DNA from: Candidatus Omnitrophota bacterium
GTDB taxonomy: Bacteria; Omnitrophota; Gorgyraeia; Duberdicusellales; Duberdicusellaceae
NCBI GenBank assembly: GCA_016932855.1
Contig: JAFGCB010000025.1
Span: 13,868 to 77,867, forward strand
Length of the DNA: 64,000 nucleotides
Direction of reading: 5' to 3'
The notes beneath the pieces are model-generated. The model saw nothing but the letters and a program-made list of their open reading frames with translations. It was not told where the DNA came from and searched no databases. The translations under genes and the position numbers were made by a program. Of the stretch, positions 3,875 to 15,103 are shown piece by piece. Positions within the stretch are counted from its first letter, which is position 1; the number at the start of each line of letters is the position of its first letter.

Positions 3875-4007
3875 ATAATACTTTAAATCCGCCTGCCGGA
3901 CTGCAAAAACTCTTGCAAAATTTCGGTAATTATGATAGATTAGCCTACCTAAAATTTAGTAATCTATTTAGGCATATTTATCTGGGTTAGCTGAGAATTT
4001 ATCAAAA

Positions 4008-5891
4008 ATGAATACCAATACACTTAATCTGCTGGAAAACAGGCTTGATTCGGCGAATGTTCAGAAGCTCAAGGCTTTGGAGAATCCTTCTCTTCTTGAT
4101 TTTGTAGCTGATTTTATTGAGCTTTGTAACCCGAAAGAAGTGTTTGTAAGGACTGATTCTTCATCCGACGCAGAGTATATACGGAAAAAAGCCCTTGAGT
4201 TTGGAGAAGAAAGAAAGCTTGGCTTACCCGGCCATAGTCTTCATTTTGACAGTTTTTTTGATCAGGGAAGGGATAAGAAAGCAACTCAGTATCTTCTGCC
4301 TAAAGGAAAGAGTCTAGGTCATTACGGTAACAGCATTGATCGCCAGGGGGGCCTGGAAGAAATTAGGACCCAGCTTAAAGATATCATGAAAGACAAGTTG
4401 ATGTTTATAGCTTTCTTTTGCCTTGGCCCTCTACATTCCGACTTTTCTATTTTAGCGGTTCAGATAACCGATTCTGCCTATGTGGCCCATTCCGAAGATA
4501 TTCTTTACCGGCCGGGATATGAGGAATTTAAGAACAAAAAGAGCCCGTCATTTTTTCGTTTTGTCCATAGCGCCGGAGAATTGGAGAGTAACGTATCGAA
4601 AAACATAGACAGCCGGAGGGTCTACATTGATTTGGAAGAAAGTACGGTTTACAGCGTTAATACCCAGTATGCCGGAAATACCGTCGGTCTTAAGAAGCTT
4701 GCCTTGCGTTTAGCGATAAATAAAGCTTCGAAAGAAGGCTGGCTCGCCGAGCATATGTTTGTAATGGGCATAAACGATGAAGGCGGCAAAAAAGCTTATT
4801 TTTGCGGAGCTTACCCAAGTATGTGCGGGAAGACCTCGACGGCGATGATTCAGGGAGAGTCTATTATTGGCGATGATATCGCTTATCTCTGGGCTAACAA
4901 TGGCAAAGCGGCCGCGGCTAATGTGGAAAGAGGTATTTTTGGTATTATAAAGGATGTTAATTCCAAAGATGACGCGATTTTATTTAAATCCTTAAGTCAG
5001 CCGGGAGAAGTAATCTTTTCTAATATTTTGGTCGATAAGCATCTTAAACCTTACTGGATAGGTAAAGATGCTGAGCTTCCTTCTTCGGGGATCAACTTCG
5101 CCGGAGAGTGGTTTCCCGGAAAAACCGATGAATGCGGAGAAGAAATCCCACCTTCTCACAAAAACGCCCGTTATACCATACGTCTTTCGGCTTTGGAGAA
5201 TGTCGATCCCAAGCTAGAGGATTCTAGGGGGGTTGAGGTAGAAGGCATTATTTACGGCGGTAGAGATTCAGATACTTCATGCCCGGTTGAAGAAGCGTTT
5301 TCCTGGCAGCACGGGATCATCACTAAGGCCGCAATCCTTGAGTCGGAGACTACTGCCGCTACTCTGGGGCAGGAAGGGGTGCGCGTTTTTAATCCTATGT
5401 CCAATATAGACTTTTTATCGATTCCTTTAGGCAAGTATCTGGATATGAATTTAGATTTTGGAAGAAAGGTTGAAAAACCGCCTTTTATTTTTTCAGTAAA
5501 TTATTTTTTGCGGGACAAGCATAAAGGCTTTTTGAACGATATGGAAGATAAGCGGGTCTGGCTTAAATGGATGCGCTTAAGGGTGGATAGAGCAGTTTCT
5601 TCACTGGCGACCCCTACAGGTTTGATTCCCAGGTACGAAGATTTAAAAGCTTTGTTTAAGAAAGTGCTGGGCAAGGATTATTTTAAAAAGGATTATATTG
5701 AGCAGTTTACTCTGCGTGTCCCTGAGAACTTAGCCAAGATAAAGCGGGTAGGAAACATTTACGCCGGGGCGCAGAATATCCCCCAGGTATTATTCGAGGA
5801 GTTAAAAAAGCAAGAGGAAAGGCTTATTGAGTGCCAGAAGAAATTCGGCGATTACGTAAGCCCGGATATGTTTAAGGAGGAGACTGCATGA
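4008..5891 (+). CDS. pckG: Phosphoenolpyruvate carboxykinase (GTP)
   Basis: 627 aa. GTP-PEPCK kinase-1a motif YPSMCGKTSTAM, IGDDIAYLW, and FIAFFCLGPLHSD matching the PEPCK-GTP family. Confidence 0.85.
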   Translation: MNTNTLNLLENRLDSANVQKLKALENPSLLDFVADFIELCNPKEVFVRTDSSSDAEYIRKKALEFGEERKLGLPGHSLHFDSFFDQGRDKKATQYLLPKGKSLGHYGNSIDRQGGLEEIRTQLKDIMKDKLMFIAFFCLGPLHSDFSILAVQITDSAYVAHSEDILYRPGYEEFKNKKSPSFFRFVHSAGELESNVSKNIDSRRVYIDLEESTVYSVNTQYAGNTVGLKKLALRLAINKASKEGWLAEHMFVMGINDEGGKKAYFCGAYPSMCGKTSTAMIQGESIIGDDIAYLWANNGKAAAANVERGIFGIIKDVNSKDDAILFKSLSQPGEVIFSNILVDKHLKPYWIGKDAELPSSGINFAGEWFPGKTDECGEEIPPSHKNARYTIRLSALENVDPKLEDSRGVEVEGIIYGGRDSDTSCPVEEAFSWQHGIITKAAILESETTAATLGQEGVRVFNPMSNIDFLSIPLGKYLDMNLDFGRKVEKPPFIFSVNYFLRDKHKGFLNDMEDKRVWLKWMRLRVDRAVSSLATPTGLIPRYEDLKALFKKVLGKDYFKKDYIEQFTLRVPENLAKIKRVGNIYAGAQNIPQVLFEELKKQEERLIECQKKFGDYVSPDMFKEETA

Positions 5892-9444: not shown

Positions 9445-10359
9445 TTGATGAAATTTAGAAAAGTATTCTTCATTTATTTTTTGTCTCTGGCGGTTTTCAT
9501 TTTTATCGCTTTTGAACTAAACCTCTGGCAGGCCGATCAACAATTACGTTCAGTAATGAGTTATTATATCCAAAAAAACCTGGAAAAAGGGGATTTTGAG
9601 GCCGCGGTAGTCATAAAGGATCTTACAAAGCGGCGCTTGGGCGATTTTCTTAGGAGACCTATTTATGTTTCTTTGAATGAAAACCAGTCTTTTCCGGCCG
9701 CCAGCTTGATTAAACTTCCTTTGATGGCTTGTTGTTTTAAGGCTGAAAGAGAAGGTAAGATAAATATTAACGATACCTATGTTTTAAAAAAGTCGGATAT
9801 TACCGGCGGCTCGGGAGTGCTTAAAGCTAAGAAGGCCGGTTCAGAATTTTCTTTGTTGGAGTTGATCGAGCTTATGATTTCCCAGAGCGATAATACCGCT
9901 TCCAATATTTTCATAAAGAAATTGGGCTTTGAATATCTTAACGCCTGCTTTAAGGATTTAGGTCTTAAACATACCGTGGTTAACCGGACGGTAATGGATT
10001 TAAATTCCCGAAAGAAAGGCATTGAGAATTTAACTTCGGCTTCGGATTTATCCTATCTTTACGAGGCTATTTATAAAAAAGATTTAGTGGATGCCGAAGC
10101 TTGCGAAACAATGCTTAAATTTTTATCCAATCAAAAAGTAAAGAACCGCCTGCCCCGCTATTTGCCTAAAGATATTACCATAGCTCATAAGACAGGCACG
10201 ATTCGCGGCATAGTACATGACGCCGGCATTGTTTTCAGTCCTAAAAGAGACTATATTATTTGTGTGCTTACCAAAGGTTCTAAAGGATATACCCTGCCCA
10301 AGGATTTCATAGCTGAAGTTTCCGAATTCGTGTATTATTTACTTGCTTATGGAAATTAA
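9445..10359 (+). CDS. Class A beta-lactamase-fold serine hydrolase (secreted or membrane-anchored)
   Basis: N-terminal TM/signal segment, SxxK-like ASLIK, and SDN (SQSDNTASN) and KTG (HKTGT) motifs. Confidence 0.65.
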   Translation: MMKFRKVFFIYFLSLAVFIFIAFELNLWQADQQLRSVMSYYIQKNLEKGDFEAAVVIKDLTKRRLGDFLRRPIYVSLNENQSFPAASLIKLPLMACCFKAEREGKININDTYVLKKSDITGGSGVLKAKKAGSEFSLLELIELMISQSDNTASNIFIKKLGFEYLNACFKDLGLKHTVVNRTVMDLNSRKKGIENLTSASDLSYLYEAIYKKDLVDAEACETMLKFLSNQKVKNRLPRYLPKDITIAHKTGTIRGIVHDAGIVFSPKRDYIICVLTKGSKGYTLPKDFIAEVSEFVYYLLAYGN

Positions 10360-11023
10360 GTATTTCGATGTAGTCTTTGAGGATGAATACCTGATAGTCG
10401 TGGATAAAAAATCCGGCCTCCTGGTCTTACCTACGCCCAAGAACGAAAAACACACCTTAACCAATCTTTTAAACGAGTATCTGAAAAATAAAAAAGAAAA
10501 AGCCTATCCTTGCCACCGTTTGGACCGGGATACTTCGGGTTTGATAGTCTATGCCAAAGATACCAATAGCCAGCAGGCTATCATGAATCAGTTTAAGGCT
10601 CGCACCTTCAGAAAGAAATACCTGGCTATTGTACAGGGGCGTTTAGTGGATTTTTACGGCGTGATTAAAGGTTATATAAAGGTAAAACAGAAGCCGGAAA
10701 AGTTCGCCGTTACTAAATACAGGGTTTTACGCCGCTTTAAGGGATTCAGTATTCTGGAAGTCGAACCTAAGACCGGAAGAACTAACCAGATCAGGATTCA
10801 TTTAAGCCAGATAGGCCATCCCGTGATAGGCGAGCGCAAGTACGCCTTTGCTAAAGATTGGCCGTTTAAATACAAAAGATTGTGTTTGCATTCCTGCTTT
10901 GCGGAATTTAGGCATCCCATAAGCAATGATTTAGTCAGACTTTTTCGTGATATCCCCGCTGATATGCGCGAATTTCTTAAAGAGCGGGGCCTGGATGTCA
11001 GGTTGAACAGAAGGCGGCGGTAA
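10343..11023 (+). CDS. RluA-family pseudouridine synthase
   Basis: HRLDRDTSGLIVYAK catalytic-Asp motif, 226 aa. Confidence 0.85.
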   Translation: MLMEIKYFDVVFEDEYLIVVDKKSGLLVLPTPKNEKHTLTNLLNEYLKNKKEKAYPCHRLDRDTSGLIVYAKDTNSQQAIMNQFKARTFRKKYLAIVQGRLVDFYGVIKGYIKVKQKPEKFAVTKYRVLRRFKGFSILEVEPKTGRTNQIRIHLSQIGHPVIGERKYAFAKDWPFKYKRLCLHSCFAEFRHPISNDLVRLFRDIPADMREFLKERGLDVRLNRRRR

Positions 11024-11033
11024 CTGCTATAGT

Positions 11034-11062
11034 TTGTTTAGGTGACGGTATTTTGTTATAAT
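11034..11062 (+). promoter_or_regulatory. Sigma70-like promoter (TTGTTT, 17 nt spacer, TATAAT) for the small-protein/peptidase/ATP-grasp operon
   Basis: A perfect TATAAT at 11057-11062 with TTGTTT 17 nt upstream. Confidence 0.45.
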
Positions 11063-11083
11063 ATTTAATGTGGGGTTCAATTC

Positions 11084-11119
11084 GCTCAAACAATCCCGAA
11101 GTATCGGGATTGTTTGAGC
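11084..11119 (+). promoter_or_regulatory. Perfect 16-bp stem hairpin (loop agta) in the 5-prime leader, immediately before the SD of the 68-aa ORF
   Basis: gctcaaacaatcccga agta tcgggattgtttgagc, with no mismatches and no downstream T-run. Confidence 0.4.
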
Positions 11120-11138
11120 TCATTGAAGGAGGTATCCA

Positions 11139-11345
11139 ATGAAGGAAGTAGCGTCTCGCAAGGTTAAGATTTTTAAGATTAAGAATCGGCGAGGCTACGC
11201 CGCTGCCTGCTTTAATCATCTTACCGAAGGCAGGACCCCTTACCAGGCCTATGCCAGGATGAGAAAAGCTTTAAAGCGAAGCGGCCTTTCTTTAAAAGAG
11301 GTCGACGCGGCCCGCGCCTCTCGTTTATTGACTACCTTAAGATAA
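11139..11345 (+). CDS. Small basic protein (68 aa), unknown function. Possible substrate or partner of the downstream ATP-grasp/peptidase pair.
   Basis: Strong SD GAAGGAGG 7 nt upstream. The protein is K/R-rich and is the first gene of a tightly packed operon. Confidence 0.45.
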   Translation: MKEVASRKVKIFKIKNRRGYAAACFNHLTEGRTPYQAYARMRKALKRSGLSLKEVDAARASRLLTTLR

Positions 11346-11375
11346 TTAAAAAGCTTTAGCTTAAGGAGGTTAGGA

Positions 11376-11561
11376 ATGGTTACGGGTATCGTATTTATTA
11401 TTGCCGGTATTTTAATCGCCATTTTTCCGGAACTTCTTTCTTTGATCGTGTCGGTTTTTCTGGTTACGCTGGGCGTGGGCATAGTGCTTACGAGCTATCA
11501 CCATAAACGTCTATCGCAGCATTTCGACAATCCTTTCGCAGATTTTATTTTTAGATTCTAA
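11376..11561 (+). CDS. Small two-helix membrane protein (61 aa)
   Basis: Strong SD TAAGGAGG. Hydrophobic IVFIIAGILIAIF and LIVSVFLVTLGVGIVL segments. Its stop overlaps the next start (TAATGA). Confidence 0.5.
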   Translation: MVTGIVFIIAGILIAIFPELLSLIVSVFLVTLGVGIVLTSYHHKRLSQHFDNPFADFIFRF

Positions 11562-12586
11562 TGACTGATAAAAAAATTAAACTCGCAAGAATCAGGGAAG
11601 ATAAATTGCTGAACTGCCGGATCTGCGATTTGCCTTTGCAGATAGAGGGGACTTGGATTGAAAGTTGCGTAAACCAGCTCTATAGTGAGCTTGAAGCCAA
11701 GGGCATAAAATTTAAACCTCTCTGCTATTTGGCTGATGAGTGGCTTACGCCTGACAACGAGCCGGTAGTAGGCATAGCTTTTTTCTTAGCTCACCCCCGG
11801 CTTGTGAAGCTAGAAAAGAAAATGATGCTTGAGGTTGAAGGAGGAACAAAGGATTGGTGCATGAAACTTTTGCGTCATGAAAGCGGCCATGCTTTAAATT
11901 ACGCTTTTAAATTATACAAACGCAGAAAATGGCAGGAGATTTTTGGCAGGTTTTCCCAGGAGTACGCTGATACCTACAGGTTTCGGCCTTATAGCAGAAG
12001 TTTTGTAAGACACTTAGAGGATTACTATGCTCAGTATCATCCCGATGAAGATTTTGCCGAGACCTTCGCGGTCTGGCTTGCTCCCAAGTCAAAATGGCCT
12101 AACCAGTATAAAGGCTGGAAAGCCCTCGGAAAGCTTAAGTATGTGGATAAACTCATGTCCGAAATAAGCAACAAAGAGCCGTTTAAGAAAAAAGGGGAAA
12201 AATACTGGTGTATTTCCCGCCTGAAAATAAAGCTAAAGAATTATTACAAAAAAAAGAAGCAATTCTGGGCCGAATATTTTCCTGATTTTCATGATTCTAA
12301 TTTAAAAAGGATATTTGTCGAGAAAGACCAGGAGCATAAAGATCTGCCTTTAGCTTGCGAGATTATAAAAAAGCACAAGAAGAACATATTAAGCAGCATT
12401 TCTACCTGGACCGGGGAACGCAGGTTTATTATCGATGATCTTTTAAGGATTATAATCGATCGCTGCAGAGATTTAAAGCTTGTCGCGGTTGATTTGGAGG
12501 TTCTCGCAGCTATTAAGATTTCGATCTACATTACGACTTTAATTATGAATTATAGCTATACCGGAAGATTCAGGAAGAAGAAATGA
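11561..12586 (+). CDS. Putative zinc metallopeptidase (HExxH; Peptidase_Mx-like family often paired with ATP-grasp enzymes)
   Basis: HESGH at residue ~106 followed by a downstream E (DEDFAETF) consistent with a zincin. Translationally coupled on both sides. Confidence 0.55.
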   Translation: MTDKKIKLARIREDKLLNCRICDLPLQIEGTWIESCVNQLYSELEAKGIKFKPLCYLADEWLTPDNEPVVGIAFFLAHPRLVKLEKKMMLEVEGGTKDWCMKLLRHESGHALNYAFKLYKRRKWQEIFGRFSQEYADTYRFRPYSRSFVRHLEDYYAQYHPDEDFAETFAVWLAPKSKWPNQYKGWKALGKLKYVDKLMSEISNKEPFKKKGEKYWCISRLKIKLKNYYKKKKQFWAEYFPDFHDSNLKRIFVEKDQEHKDLPLACEIIKKHKKNILSSISTWTGERRFIIDDLLRIIIDRCRDLKLVAVDLEVLAAIKISIYITTLIMNYSYTGRFRKKK

Positions 12587-13593
12587 GGAAACTGAAAATT
12601 CTTTTATTATTCGACAGTCCCTACGCCAAGCCCAGAGGCTACGACTTTAAGGAAGAGTTTAAGGATATTGATTGGGCCACCGAAGGCGACGTCCTGCAAG
12701 CCTTAAGAAAAAGAGGCCATGAAGTCAATATTCTAGGTCTTTATAAAGATATTAATCTTCTTTTGGAAGAAGTCAGGGAAAACAAGCCGGATGTCATATT
12801 CAATCTTGTTGAAGTCTTTGACCAGAAGTCCAGTCTTGATAAGAATGTTGTCTATTTACTGGAGCTGTTAGGAGTACCTTTTACAGGAGCCGATCCCGCC
12901 AGTCTTCTTGTCTGCAATAATAAAGCCTTAAGCAAAAAAATATTAAGTTTTCATAGAATAAAAGTCCCCCATTTTTATACTTTTTACAAGAAGCATAAGA
13001 TTTGGCTTCCCAAAAAGCTTAATCCGCCCTTAATAGTTAAACCTTTGTGTGAGGAAGCCTCGCGGGGGATAGCCCAGGCCTCTATAGTTGATAGCGAAGA
13101 GACCTTGGTTGAGAGGGTTAAGTTTATTCACCAGAGTTTGGATATGGACGCTATAGCCGAAGAATATATCGACGGAAGGGAGTTTTACGTAAGTATTCTG
13201 GGAAATAAGCGAATTAAGGTCTTGCCTTTAAGAGAGATGAAGTTCGGCCAGTTTCCCGAGGATGAGCCCAGGATAGCAACCTACAAAGCTAAGTGGGATT
13301 ATAATTATCGCCAGAAGTGGGGTATAAAAAATGTCTTTGCCGGAAGGCTTGCCAACGGCCTGGAGGCAAAGATATCTTATATATGCAAGAGAGCCTACCG
13401 GGCAATAGATATGAAATGCTATGCTCGCTTTGATATAAGAGTTACCGGCGGCGAAGTCTATATCATAGAAGCCAATGCTAACCCGTCGTTGTTTATGTAT
13501 GACGAGGTTGCCCAGTCCGCTGATAAGGCCGGTATTTCTTACGATAAGCTGCTGGAGATGATAATAAGTTTCGCTTTCCAGAGGCAAAAATAA
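12583..13593 (+). CDS. ATP-grasp ligase (D-Ala-D-Ala ligase / RimK-like fold)
   Basis: 336 aa. Pre-ATP-grasp N-domain and a central K-rich ATP-binding region (LIVKPL...EEYIDGREF...IIEANANPS), typical of Ddl/RimK-like ATP-grasp enzymes. Start overlaps the peptidase stop (ATGA). Confidence 0.75.
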   Translation: MRKLKILLLFDSPYAKPRGYDFKEEFKDIDWATEGDVLQALRKRGHEVNILGLYKDINLLLEEVRENKPDVIFNLVEVFDQKSSLDKNVVYLLELLGVPFTGADPASLLVCNNKALSKKILSFHRIKVPHFYTFYKKHKIWLPKKLNPPLIVKPLCEEASRGIAQASIVDSEETLVERVKFIHQSLDMDAIAEEYIDGREFYVSILGNKRIKVLPLREMKFGQFPEDEPRIATYKAKWDYNYRQKWGIKNVFAGRLANGLEAKISYICKRAYRAIDMKCYARFDIRVTGGEVYIIEANANPSLFMYDEVAQSADKAGISYDKLLEMIISFAFQRQK

Positions 13594-13642: not shown

Positions 13643-15103
13643 ATGAGCGGGATTTTTGGCGTAGTCTCAAAAAATGATTGTTCGCAGGATTTATTCTATG
13701 GGGTAGATTACCATTCGCACTTGGGAACCGAGTACGCCGGCATGGCTGTTTTGGGCGAGGATTTTGTCCGCCAGATACACAGCATACGCCAGGACCAATT
13801 CAAGTCAAAATTTTATGATGATCAGAAGCTCATGAAAGCGCCTAAGGGCATCGGCGTCATAAGCGCTTTTAACGAGCAGCCTATTTACTTAAATTCCAAT
13901 CTCGGGCCTTTCTATATTGTTACTAACGGTTTGGTGGAAAATAAAGAAAAGCTTGCTCAAGGATTATTTGAAAAGGGGGTATCTTTCAGCGAATTCAGCA
14001 AGAAAACAGTTAATACCACAGAGCTTATCGCCAAGCTCATAAGCCAGGAAGAGGATTTGCTAACGGGCATAGAGAAGATGTTCGAGGTAATCGAAGGCTC
14101 GTGTTCGCTGCTGATATTGAATAAGGACGGCATTTACGCAGCCAGAGACAGGTTAGGTTATACTCCTTTGGCCGTAGGAAAAAAGCTTGATTCCTGGGCG
14201 GTGACAACGGAGACCAGCGCTTTTCCTAATCTGGACTTCGAACTGGTAAAGTTTATCGAGCCAGGCGAAGTAGTGCTTTTGACTGAGCAGGGTATCTTTC
14301 AGAGAGCGCAAGGCAGGTCTGCGAATCAAATCTGTTCGTTTCTTTGGATATATACCGGTTTTCCCGCTTCGAGCTACGAAGGCGTTAACGTAGAAACAGT
14401 CCGGGAAAGATGCGGAAGGCTTTTAGCTAAGAGAGACGCCGATATAGAGGTGGATGTCGTAGCTGGCGTCCCGGATTCAGGAACCGCGCACGCCATAGGT
14501 TATGCCATGGAGTCGAAAAAACCCTATCGGCGGCCTTTGGTTAAATATACGCCCGGATACGGAAGAAGCTATACGCCTCCTTCTCAAGAGACCCGGGATT
14601 TAATCGCCAGGATGAAGCTTATTCCCATAAAAGATATCATTGCCGGCAATAGAATAGTAGTCTGCGAGGATTCTATAGTAAGAGGAACGCAGCTTAAGAA
14701 TTTTACTATCCGTAAGCTTTGGGACGCCGGGGCTAAGGAAATCCATGTCAGGCCCGCCTGCCCGCCTTTAATGTTTCCCTGCCGCTTTAATCTTTCTACC
14801 CGAAGTACCCATGAGCTTGCCGCCCGCCGGGCAATTAAGGCTTTGGAAGGCCGGGAAACAGAGGACGTCGGGGAGTATTTAGAGTACGGGTCTAAAAAAT
14901 ATAAGAAGATGGTAGAGTGGATAGCTAAAGATTTAGAAGTAACAACTTTGCGTTATCAAACTGTTGAGGATATGGTAAAGGCAATAGGCTTGCCGAAAGA
15001 AAAGCTTTGTCTATGCTGCTGGCAGGCAGAGGGCCTTAAAGAAAGTAAGGAAAAGAAGTCAGAAAAAAGTACGCAAAATTCATTTCTATATAAAGGCAAA
15101 TGA
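13643..15103 (+). CDS. Amidophosphoribosyltransferase (PurF)-like protein with Ser replacing the N-terminal catalytic Cys
   Basis: N-terminus MSGIFGV where PurF has MCGIVG. Ntn-GATase features (TNG oxyanion motif) and the C-terminal PRTase motif VVCEDSIVRGTQ. An in-frame TAA two codons upstream fixes the start. Confidence 0.7.
   Translation: MSGIFGVVSKNDCSQDLFYGVDYHSHLGTEYAGMAVLGEDFVRQIHSIRQDQFKSKFYDDQKLMKAPKGIGVISAFNEQPIYLNSNLGPFYIVTNGLVENKEKLAQGLFEKGVSFSEFSKKTVNTTELIAKLISQEEDLLTGIEKMFEVIEGSCSLLILNKDGIYAARDRLGYTPLAVGKKLDSWAVTTETSAFPNLDFELVKFIEPGEVVLLTEQGIFQRAQGRSANQICSFLWIYTGFPASSYEGVNVETVRERCGRLLAKRDADIEVDVVAGVPDSGTAHAIGYAMESKKPYRRPLVKYTPGYGRSYTPPSQETRDLIARMKLIPIKDIIAGNRIVVCEDSIVRGTQLKNFTIRKLWDAGAKEIHVRPACPPLMFPCRFNLSTRSTHELAARRAIKALEGRETEDVGEYLEYGSKKYKKMVEWIAKDLEVTTLRYQTVEDMVKAIGLPKEKLCLCCWQAEGLKESKEKKSEKSTQNSFLYKGK

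Follow-up and report, generated by a model that had tools for sequence, protein, structure and literature searches.

In a Candidatus Omnitrophota MAG, two small open reading frames (ORFs) lie directly ahead of genes for an HExxH metalloprotein and an ATP-grasp protein. Do these four genes form a peptide-modification system, as the initial annotation had proposed, with the small proteins as the obvious candidate substrates of the enzymes, or is the functional unit a smaller part of the locus? The reading developed here, which is given an even chance of being right, is that the unit is a two-gene, translationally coupled cassette of a zinc hydrolase and a Ddl-like ligase, whose substrate would be a metabolite or the product of a gene located elsewhere. 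It draws on four observations: the two genes are linked, their catalytic motifs are intact, the residues that give Ddl its specificity have been lost, and the small genes are not conserved.

The four genes and their leader

The two small ORFs, the HExxH and ATP-grasp proteins, a hairpin with a perfect 16-bp stem, and a TGnTATAAT box, all of which had been picked out at the outset, are present in the sequence at the positions first noted. The features are numbered here from the first letter of the window, i.e. the whole 64,000-nt stretch of DNA that was analysed:

11054-11062, + strand: TGtTATAAT, an extended -10-like element read from the sequence, upstream of the hairpin and s68
11084-11099 / 11104-11119, + strand: hairpin in the leader of s68, 16/16 pairs and a loop of 4 nt
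11139-11345, + strand: s68, a 68-aa basic protein of a small family so far encountered only in Omnitrophota; an independent gene upstream of the pair
11376-11561, + strand: m61, a 61-aa two-helix membrane peptide (DUF3096); a lineage-specific upstream neighbour
11561-12586, + strand: peptidase, 341 aa, a gluzincin-like metallohydrolase; core member of the conserved pair
11876-11890, + strand: HESGH, peptidase residues 106-110, the zinc-binding/catalytic HExxH, read from the sequence; family-invariant
12038-12067, + strand: H160-P-D-E-D-F-A-E167-T-F169, second invariant motif of the peptidase, with the predicted third zinc ligand (Glu)
12583-13593, + strand: ATP-grasp ligase, 336 aa, a Ddl-like amide ligase with a remodelled substrate pocket; core member of the pair

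The m61 and peptidase genes share TAATG, with a 1-nt overlap inside TAATGA, and the peptidase and ligase genes overlap by 4 nt (ATGA). Between s68 and m61 there is no overlap but a gap of 30 nt, and m61 has its own AAGGAGG Shine-Dalgarno sequence. Thus, translational coupling, which had been claimed for all four ORFs, holds by overlap for three of them. By sequence comparison both small ORFs are real genes rather than chance ORFs, because s68 has 57 homologues with an invariant core and copies of m61 are present in four loci. None of the four proteins matched a PADLOC defence model, and a protein search of a plasmid collection returned nothing. Two genes upstream, the window lineage carries a class-A beta-lactamase/PBP-like gene.

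The extended -10 element consists of TATAAT at 11057-11062 with a TG at 11054-11055. No good -35 element was found for it, and a two-hexamer promoter scan omitted this site because no -35 fits. A comparable sequence, TGgTAAAAT, lies ahead of s68 in the closest relative, L080. The hairpin folds with -35 kcal/mol, compared with -17 +/- 3 for shuffled sequences (z = -5.8; 0/200 shuffles as good), and occurs only once within the 64-kb window. It was rejected as an intrinsic terminator, since no T-run follows it on either strand, and as a conserved regulatory element, since it was not found in L080, L002, L007, L009, or L010, the closest relatives checked. An Rfam search with the leader and hairpin gave only sub-threshold chance matches (rimP leader, 25 bits versus a gathering score of 47). 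The hairpin, which had been noted as a leader element of the operon and is missing even from the closest relatives, is thus peculiar to this genome. It probably serves either as a stem that stabilises the 5'-UTR or as a palindrome bound by a protein.

Conservation of the pair and of its neighbours

In 73 of 75 genome loci the peptidase and ligase genes lie side by side in the same orientation, among them a gammaproteobacterial MAG at 43% identity and Pirellulaceae at 39%. The same adjacency is seen at 33-40% identity in metagenome and assembly contigs (L076, whose peptidase clusters with Pyrinomonadaceae proteins, L084, and L085) and in about 52 of the 57 informative loci of an independent metagenome clade. 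The pair is spread over Omnitrophota, where both proteins are 60-75% identical, Acidobacteriota, Planctomycetota (Pirellulaceae), and Gammaproteobacteria. The genes beside it are functionally unrelated by Pfam. No third gene family or small ORF recurs in 155 loci (two independent locus sets), and the same holds for mur, dcw, and van genes. A Pfam search that covered the genes around the pair in the window and ten neighbours from six related loci revealed no van-like genes. In the search for a third gene as a possible substrate, a CBM_11-like lipoprotein and MnmA, present in 24/75 Omnitrophota loci, were rejected as lineage synteny only.

It is very unlikely that the two enzymes have unrelated functions and are linked by synteny alone. 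Next to a minority of the peptidase homologues there is indeed no ligase (L077-L079, L117, L131, L160, as well as L088-L090, which are short homologues), and no peptidase-ligase fusion was found among the best 150 representatives, so that gene order is what ties the two enzymes together. However, the adjacency persists over at least four phyla, in which all the other neighbours vary, and it survives in L153, in which the order of the two genes is inverted. In addition, the genes overlap by the 4-nt ATGA in 90 of 138 pairs, and the gap is 30 nt or less in 120 of 138.

The small genes are distributed quite differently from the pair. The s68 protein (18 K/R versus 4 D/E, counted by eye on the translation) belongs to a family of 57 homologues with 48-80% identity. 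It adjoins the pair in none of the 75 genome loci, accompanying it only in the closest relatives (L080, where the s68 stop overlaps the peptidase start); its more distant homologues are solitary, in unrelated gene contexts, and it was not found in 80 further metagenome loci. It is a gene of its own, which here happens to lie upstream of the pair. The m61 peptide has two hydrophobic segments and passes the gathering threshold of DUF3096 (26.0 bits versus 23.3), the family that had been suggested for checking it. In only 4 of the 75 genome loci, all of which also retain rluD upstream, is m61 present, with copies that are 54-62% identical and directly abut the peptidase gene; it is missing from L080 and from all 80 metagenome loci. 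Consequently, m61 lies outside the conserved module.

This distribution bears on the peptide-modification reading, in which the ATP-grasp protein would tail or cross-link s68 or m61 and the zincin would mature the product. The genes are indeed contiguous here, with the TAATG and ATGA overlaps, and a small gene overlaps the peptidase start in L080 or abuts the peptidase gene in four related loci. Nevertheless, this reading is considered extremely unlikely. The four-gene architecture did not survive the neighbourhood comparison (s68 in 0/75 loci, m61 in 4/75, neither in the 80 further loci), and neither small protein is co-conserved with the enzymes. The RimK-type tailing that had been suggested finds no match in the ligase, which has no hit to RimK (PF08443) at E<=1; in the alignment of s68 no conserved C-terminus was found, its last residue varying among R, K, L, and V. 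Graspetide-like maturation fares no better: no conserved Thr/Ser/Asp/Glu core motif was found in the s68 alignment, no precursor ORF recurs in the 155 loci, and s68 is predicted to fold into a compact beta-beta-beta-alpha-beta domain, HicB-N/dsRBD-like, with a pLDDT of 92. No RimK, TTL, or graspetide-ligase model was matched by the ligase, all of whose best matches are to Ddl. What stands of the original proposal is an uncharacterised ligase/peptidase module, widespread and tightly linked, within a four-gene unit that is not itself conserved. On the best reading, s68, m61, and the hairpin are local, lineage-specific neighbours of the pair and not its substrates. A lineage-specific role for s68 or m61 may exist in the window lineage and in L080, because in these a small gene overlaps or abuts the peptidase start.

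The ligase and the zinc hydrolase

On sequence grounds the ligase is a member of the ATP-grasp carboxylate-amine ligase superfamily. It matches Dala_Dala_lig_C (79 bits) and also ATP-grasp_3 (31 bits), one of the models for which it had been earmarked, RimK being the other, and its best PDB match is the Ddl 3r23 (E 1.8e-24). However, its scores reach no more than about half of any curated Ddl/Van HMM cut-off: 123 bits versus 243 for the best NCBIfam Ddl model, PRK01372, and 102 bits versus 246 for TIGR01205. It is about 25% identical to E. coli DdlB, the reference used for residue numbers, whose sequence as aligned is self-consistent in length and key positions. K97, K144, E180, E187, K215, R255, D257, E270, and N272 (DdlB numbering) are all retained without change, both by the window protein and by distant members of the family. 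In contrast, E15, S150, Y216, G276, S281, and L282 are replaced; family-wide, E15 is unconserved and the other changes include S150A, Y216W, S281D/E, and L282E/D. The omega-loop keeps its lysine-aromatic pair as K215-W216 and is longer than that of DdlB, and an insertion of about 12 residues follows strand 1.

Because the Ddl HMM cut-offs are missed and the D-Ala-binding residues are replaced, the ligase is judged not to be an orthodox D-Ala-D-Ala ligase (EC 6.3.2.4), the case that the initial annotation had named as fatal to its own proposal. No canonical ddl is present within the 64-kb window. JGI labels several family members D-Ala-D-Ala ligase, a name that should not be given to this ligase family in genome annotation.

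Could the pair instead be a peptidoglycan-precursor module, i.e. a divergent D-Ala-D-X or D-amino-acid dipeptide ligase with a zinc dipeptidase, as in VanA/VanX or Ddl/DdpX? Ddl is by far the closest characterised relative of the ligase, the K215-W216 pair is retained, and the beta-lactamase/PBP-like gene lies two genes upstream in the window lineage. However, the residues for D-Ala1 (E15, S150, and Y216) and for the D-Ala2 carboxylate (S281 and L282) are replaced family-wide, and the hydrolase is an HExxH zincin, whereas VanX and DdpX belong to MEROPS M15 and do not have the HExxH helix. Nor do mur, dcw, or van genes recur nearby, and the pair is also present in Gammaproteobacteria and Acidobacteriota, which generally carry a canonical ddl. 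Such a module is therefore regarded as improbable.

The hydrolase has the two features of a zincin, an invariant HExxH and a conserved downstream candidate ligand. R105, directly before HExxH, is invariant, as are H160, P161, D164, A166, E167, and F169 of the second motif, which we take to be a Glu-helix from its resemblance to those of anthrax LF and MtfA. Across 87 representatives with 35-55% identity, RHExxH and Y.Q.HP.ED.AE.F are invariant. The catalytic domain lies in the N-terminal part (residues ~30-200); the helical domain that makes up the C-terminal part (~220-335) is poorly conserved and is missing from the short, unpaired homologues; the family comprises 2091 clusters at 50% identity, nearly all of ~340 aa. 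Peptidase_Mx (PF15887), the Pfam family proposed at first, is matched just below threshold (26.0 bits versus a gathering threshold of 27), with only about 75 of the 236 model positions aligned. All 31 aligned homologues match it at E<1e-3, and most have a precomputed PF15887 assignment. TIGR04549 gives 23 bits versus a cut-off of 75. PDB sequence and profile searches with the peptidase found nothing, and Foldseek against the PDB gave no match below E = 5; the peptidase is without a solved structural relative. It is presumably cytoplasmic, because N-termini, read by eye, show no evident signal peptide.

A proposed mechanism and its known counterparts

For the two-gene cassette, we infer a single substrate for both enzymes, as well as the direction and chemistry of each step. 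The ligase would convert a carboxylate to an acyl-phosphate and join it to an amine other than D-alanine. In Ddl, the S281-L282 loop holds the carboxylate of D-Ala2. The acidic loop that replaces it in the alignment to DdlB (D/E-E/D), together with loss of the E15/S150/Y216 triad, suggests a nucleophile that is cationic or carboxylate-free. The zinc enzyme would hydrolyse an amide bond of the molecule that the ligase uses or makes, either removing the group added by the ligase or trimming the substrate so that the ligase can extend it. The substrate itself would be encoded elsewhere or be a metabolite.

A more specific proposal is a reversible protein-tagging cycle. Some conserved housekeeping protein, with its gene elsewhere, would receive an amino acid from the ligase at one of its termini or on a side chain, and the gluzincin would take this residue off again, much as in tubulin tyrosination/detyrosination or in the action of RimK on ribosomal protein S6, of which the cycle would be the bacterial analogue. 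The unusually high identity of both proteins across Omnitrophota (60-75%) would fit a conserved macromolecular substrate, the module consists strictly of two genes with no substrate gene nearby, and the hydrolase has an extra C-terminal helical domain absent from the short, unpaired homologues. However, Ddl-clade ATP-grasps are known for small-molecule substrates, the Ddl omega-loop that closes the active site is kept and even lengthened, and no RimK or TTL model is matched; the cycle is thus regarded as improbable. Equally improbable is a broader bacterial "write/erase" system, in which a conserved cellular protein or metabolite would be tagged with an amino acid or amine by the Ddl-derived ligase and freed of it by a dedicated gluzincin. 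If true, prokaryotes would have in the pair their own version of the tubulin tyrosination cycle or a means of making a new glutathionylspermidine-like regulatory conjugate, and such a system would be present in thousands of lineages and be nearly universal in Omnitrophota.

The association of ATP-grasp ligases with peptidases is an established theme; peptides, conjugates, or protein tags have proved to be what several such pairs make or edit. The present pair is large and broad (~2,100 clusters at 50% identity), strongly conserved, and without a characterised member. A literature search found no published account of it; a 2009 amidoligase survey, the likeliest source, lay outside the reach of that search, and a paper on CA_C2195 (PMC4000134) was rejected as a prior account, since it concerns an unrelated M28-like protein. 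For the two-gene cassette, a unit of two soluble enzymes, of which the ligase has lost D-Ala specificity, provides a clean, testable target.

The ligase has the fold and catalytic machinery of the Ddl/VanA ATP-grasp family; its companion, however, is a zincin rather than mur/fts genes. The likeness to RimK and to graspetide (microviridin-type) systems is superficial, an ATP-grasp close to small ORFs and a peptidase: the ligase lies in the Ddl branch, not the RimK branch, and the pair has no conserved precursor or substrate gene, leader/core motifs, or conserved acidic C-terminus. For the hydrolase, the minimal gluzincins that may be nearest are anthrax lethal factor/Pro-Pro endopeptidase (M34, ATLF-like) and MtfA (M90). 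With the Peptidase_Mx/TIGR04549 [quoted passage not shown] of Bacteroides (PDB 4l7a), only ~70 residues around the active site align. In Bacteroides these are secreted lipoproteins with links to TonB/SusCD import, whereas the peptidase of the pair has no evident signal peptide, a distinct C-terminal domain, and a linked ATP-grasp.

As a pair, the two enzymes may share their logic with VanA/VanX, the TTL/carboxypeptidase cycle, and glutathionylspermidine synthetase/amidase. VanA/VanX and Ddl/DdpX resemble it in the genetic linkage of a Ddl-type ligase with a zinc hydrolase by which the same type of bond could be cleaved. However, the partner here is a 341-aa HExxH gluzincin with an extra helical domain, and there are no van regulatory or resistance genes. 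E. coli Gss combines both activities in a fusion, with a CHAP cysteine hydrolase as the amidase, whereas the pair consists of separate, coupled genes with a zinc hydrolase, and no sequence relationship was detected. The likeness proposed here is that of an ATP-grasp-type amide ligase coupled to a hydrolase for the same bond, and the acidic pocket residues of the pair's ligase would suit a cationic amine.

Layout of the locus and its leader

The initial annotation described a four-gene peptide-modification operon, composed of small proteins, a peptidase and an ATP-grasp ligase, behind a hairpin. The DNA belongs to a MAG of Candidatus Omnitrophota (Omnitrophica). All four ORFs are found at the positions given, and the leader contains both the TATAAT box and the perfect 16-bp stem.

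11054-11062: TGtTATAAT box
11084-11119: hairpin, perfect 16-bp stem
11139-11345: s68, basic protein of 68 aa
11376-11561: m61, membrane peptide of 61 aa
11561-12586: peptidase (HExxH protein), 341 aa
12583-13593: ATP-grasp ligase, 336 aa

For the peptidase (JW734_03040), s68 (JW734_03030) and the ligase, NCBI has 100% identical entries, all three on a single contig. In Pfam, m61 matches DUF3096 above threshold, the ligase matches Dala_Dala_lig_C (79 bits), and the HExxH protein scores 26.0 bits for Peptidase_Mx against a threshold of 27. Translational coupling, proposed for all four ORFs, is seen at the m61/peptidase junction, which shares TAATG, and at the peptidase/ligase junction, which shares ATGA. 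Between s68 and m61, however, there is a gap of 30 nt, and a separate Shine-Dalgarno sequence precedes m61, so that overlap couples just three of the four ORFs.

The hairpin has a folding energy of -35 kcal/mol (z = -5.8 versus shuffles), occurs once in the window and has no match in Rfam. It is absent from the closest relatives, that is, from L080 (the locus nearest to this one) and from the four loci that carry m61 (L002, L007, L009 and L010). In the s68 leader it is a feature specific to this genome, where it possibly serves as a 5' stabilizing stem or a palindromic binding site; it lies outside the conserved module.

ORFs of at least 100 aa in the window (1-64000) are almost all on the plus strand, and those on the minus strand mostly lie within or overlap longer plus-strand ORFs; thus, the genes appear to run in one direction along most of the 64 kb. 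Upstream, a gene resembling class-A beta-lactamases (Beta-lactamase2, and weakly Peptidase_S11; 9445-10359) overlaps the start of an RluD-type pseudouridine synthase gene (10343-11023) by 17 nt, an arrangement also kept in L007 and L080. Downstream, positions 13643-15103 encode a GATase_7, a PurF-like class-II glutamine amidotransferase whose N-terminus (MSGIFG) has Ser at the usual position of the nucleophilic Cys (MCGI...). This gene is missing in L080 between the ligase and a Ste24-like M48 peptidase.

The peptidase-ligase pair and its neighbors

Relatives of the peptidase were collected from 75 genome loci, 73 of which have an ATP-grasp gene directly downstream on the same strand; one of the two exceptions (L061) stops at a contig edge. 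A gammaproteobacterial MAG (L074, 43% identity) and a Pirellulaceae genome (L075, 39%) are among the 75. A divergent clade supplied 80 metagenome loci as a second, independent set; here the two genes are adjacent in about 52 of the 57 loci with enough downstream sequence. In one of these (L153, 4279-6409) the order is inverted, with the ATP-grasp gene upstream, yet the genes are still adjacent, which independently supports a functional link between them. Of the 138 pairs across all loci, 90 overlap by ATGA and 120 are spaced by no more than 30 nt. Single look-ups revealed pairs with 4-nt overlaps in L076, whose peptidase groups with proteins of Pyrinomonadaceae (Acidobacteriota), L084 and L085, and a pair separated by 3.5 kb in L086. 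An abundant Auribacterota lineage (L077-L079, 7072-7764) has a peptidase homologue without the ligase; an IS200/Y1 transposase lies alongside, and a polysaccharide deacetylase overlaps the start of the homologue (protein found on 90 contigs). A full pair is also present in L087, a locus classed as viral.

In neither set did all-against-all clustering of the neighboring ORFs reveal a third family that recurs, and in the second the next most frequent families occur in at most 7 loci. A CBM_11-type lipoprotein-like ORF of ~202 aa lies immediately upstream of the pair, ~620 nt from the peptidase, in 24 of the 75 loci (Omnitrophota loci L001, L008, L011 and L028, and 20 others), usually preceded by MnmA; this seems to reflect synteny within the lineage and not membership in the module. 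Other neighbors (DHFR, C-N hydrolase, DHDPS, transporters, MscL, glycosyltransferases) are mutually unrelated. Since adjacency is kept with no third recurrent family, the functional unit is the two genes. Coincidental synteny of peptidase and ligase is very improbable, given that their adjacency persists across phyla while every other neighbor changes.

The small genes do not share this conservation. s68 is beside the pair in none of the 75 loci, and m61 is present in 4, precisely those that keep rluD upstream. m61 is a two-helix DUF3096 peptide confined to a small clade. s68 represents a genuine protein family, with 57 homologues (48-80% identity, all Omnitrophota where named) and an invariant core, KIFKIKNRRGYA..NHLTEG..RM.KA. 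In L080, where m61 does not intervene, the stop codon of s68 overlaps the start of the peptidase gene. The more distant members neighbor BacA, a PilZ/STAS protein, NifU or TrpRS, and neither peptidase nor ligase is found near them. In an AlphaFold model, s68 folds confidently (pLDDT 92) into a compact domain built on a beta-beta-beta-alpha-beta core, and the C-terminus varies among homologues. These lone contexts, the folded model and the variable C-terminus misfit a dedicated ligase substrate or RiPP precursor. A four-gene RiPP or tailing system, in which s68 and m61 would be substrates, is scarcely credible when neither gene is co-conserved with the pair. The more eye-catching parts of the initial annotation (the hairpin, the four-gene operon and small proteins as substrates) are not sustained.

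The zinc hydrolase and the ligase

At 50% identity the peptidase family has 2091 representatives with E<1e-3, of which 584 reach E<1e-30. Full-length proteins (~340 aa) make up most of the best 150 matches and the remainder seem to be fragments or shorter variants; among these 150 no fusion protein is visible. Residues invariant in 87 representatives of 35-55% identity are W61, F74, L81, R105, H106, E107, H110, F128, G129, V149, Y156, Q158, H160, P161, D164, A166, E167, F169, W179, Y183 and K191, comprising an RHExxH helix and a Y.Q.HP.ED.AE.F motif. The HExGHA and E-D-F-A-E-x-F motifs presumably resemble those of LF, PPEP and MtfA. The AF2 model has a pLDDT of 80.9. The C-terminal 140 residues are weakly conserved; since short homologues (~200 aa, catalytic domain only) lack an adjoining ATP-grasp gene (L088-L090), this domain may be specific to the ligase-linked subfamily. 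L088-L090 are IMG/VR contigs classed as viral (match at 4001-4590). Reading the N-termini by eye revealed no signal peptide in either enzyme, and both are probably cytoplasmic.

The closest characterized relatives of the ligase are D-alanine--D-alanine ligases (Ddl; best PDB match 3r23, E 1.8e-24), with ~25% identity to E. coli DdlB, but its scores are half or less of each curated Ddl/Van HMM cut-off. In an alignment to a DdlB sequence entered by hand, whose numbering is used here, the ATP-grasp catalytic residues K97, K144, E180, E187, K215, R255, D257, E270 and N272 are invariant in the family. Residues that define D-Ala recognition are replaced family-wide, including in distant members: E15 is lost, S150 is A, Y216 is W, G276 is S, C or N, S281 is D or E, and L282 is E or D. 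The family also has ~12 residues inserted behind the first strand and an additional invariant Arg following D257, and its omega-loop (RIAT..KW..Y) is conserved and longer. With catalytic residues kept and D-Ala recognition lost, the ligase looks catalytically competent but is not an orthodox Ddl. The acidic replacement of the loop that binds the D-Ala2 carboxylate suggests that the nucleophile may be cationic or may have no free carboxylate. The same loss of D-Ala-binding residues makes it unlikely that the pair is a peptidoglycan dipeptide ligase/dipeptidase module.

A possible ligation-hydrolysis couple and known systems

The two genes form a conserved, translationally coupled unit in which both enzymes retain intact catalytic motifs and the ligase has lost Ddl specificity residues; no co-conserved substrate gene lies beside them in either locus set. 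There is perhaps an even chance that the two enzymes share a substrate and work as a couple: the ligase would form an amide bond via an acyl-phosphate, and the zinc enzyme would hydrolyze an amide of that molecule, whether to undo the ligation or to ready the acceptor. A reversible protein-tagging cycle is improbable, given that Ddl-clade enzymes use small molecules as substrates and the ligase keeps the omega-loop.

The pair is an ATP-grasp ligase plus peptidase cassette, a recognized type. We found no publication on it, although an earlier in silico mention is possible in a 2009 survey of amidoligase-peptidase contexts. The family is abundant, well-defined and easy to approach experimentally. 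The ligase belongs to the Ddl branch of the ATP-grasp superfamily, yet it failed the tests for Ddl itself. Tests for RimK, graspetide and Van membership were also negative; the suggested analogy with RimK-type tailing or graspetides is not borne out. The hydrolase, a zincin, matches Peptidase_Mx marginally and differs from the Bacteroides lipoproteins on which this family is defined. The proposed couple of ligation and amide hydrolysis would share its logic with glutathionylspermidine synthetase/amidase, with VanA/VanX, and with TTL/carboxypeptidase cycles.
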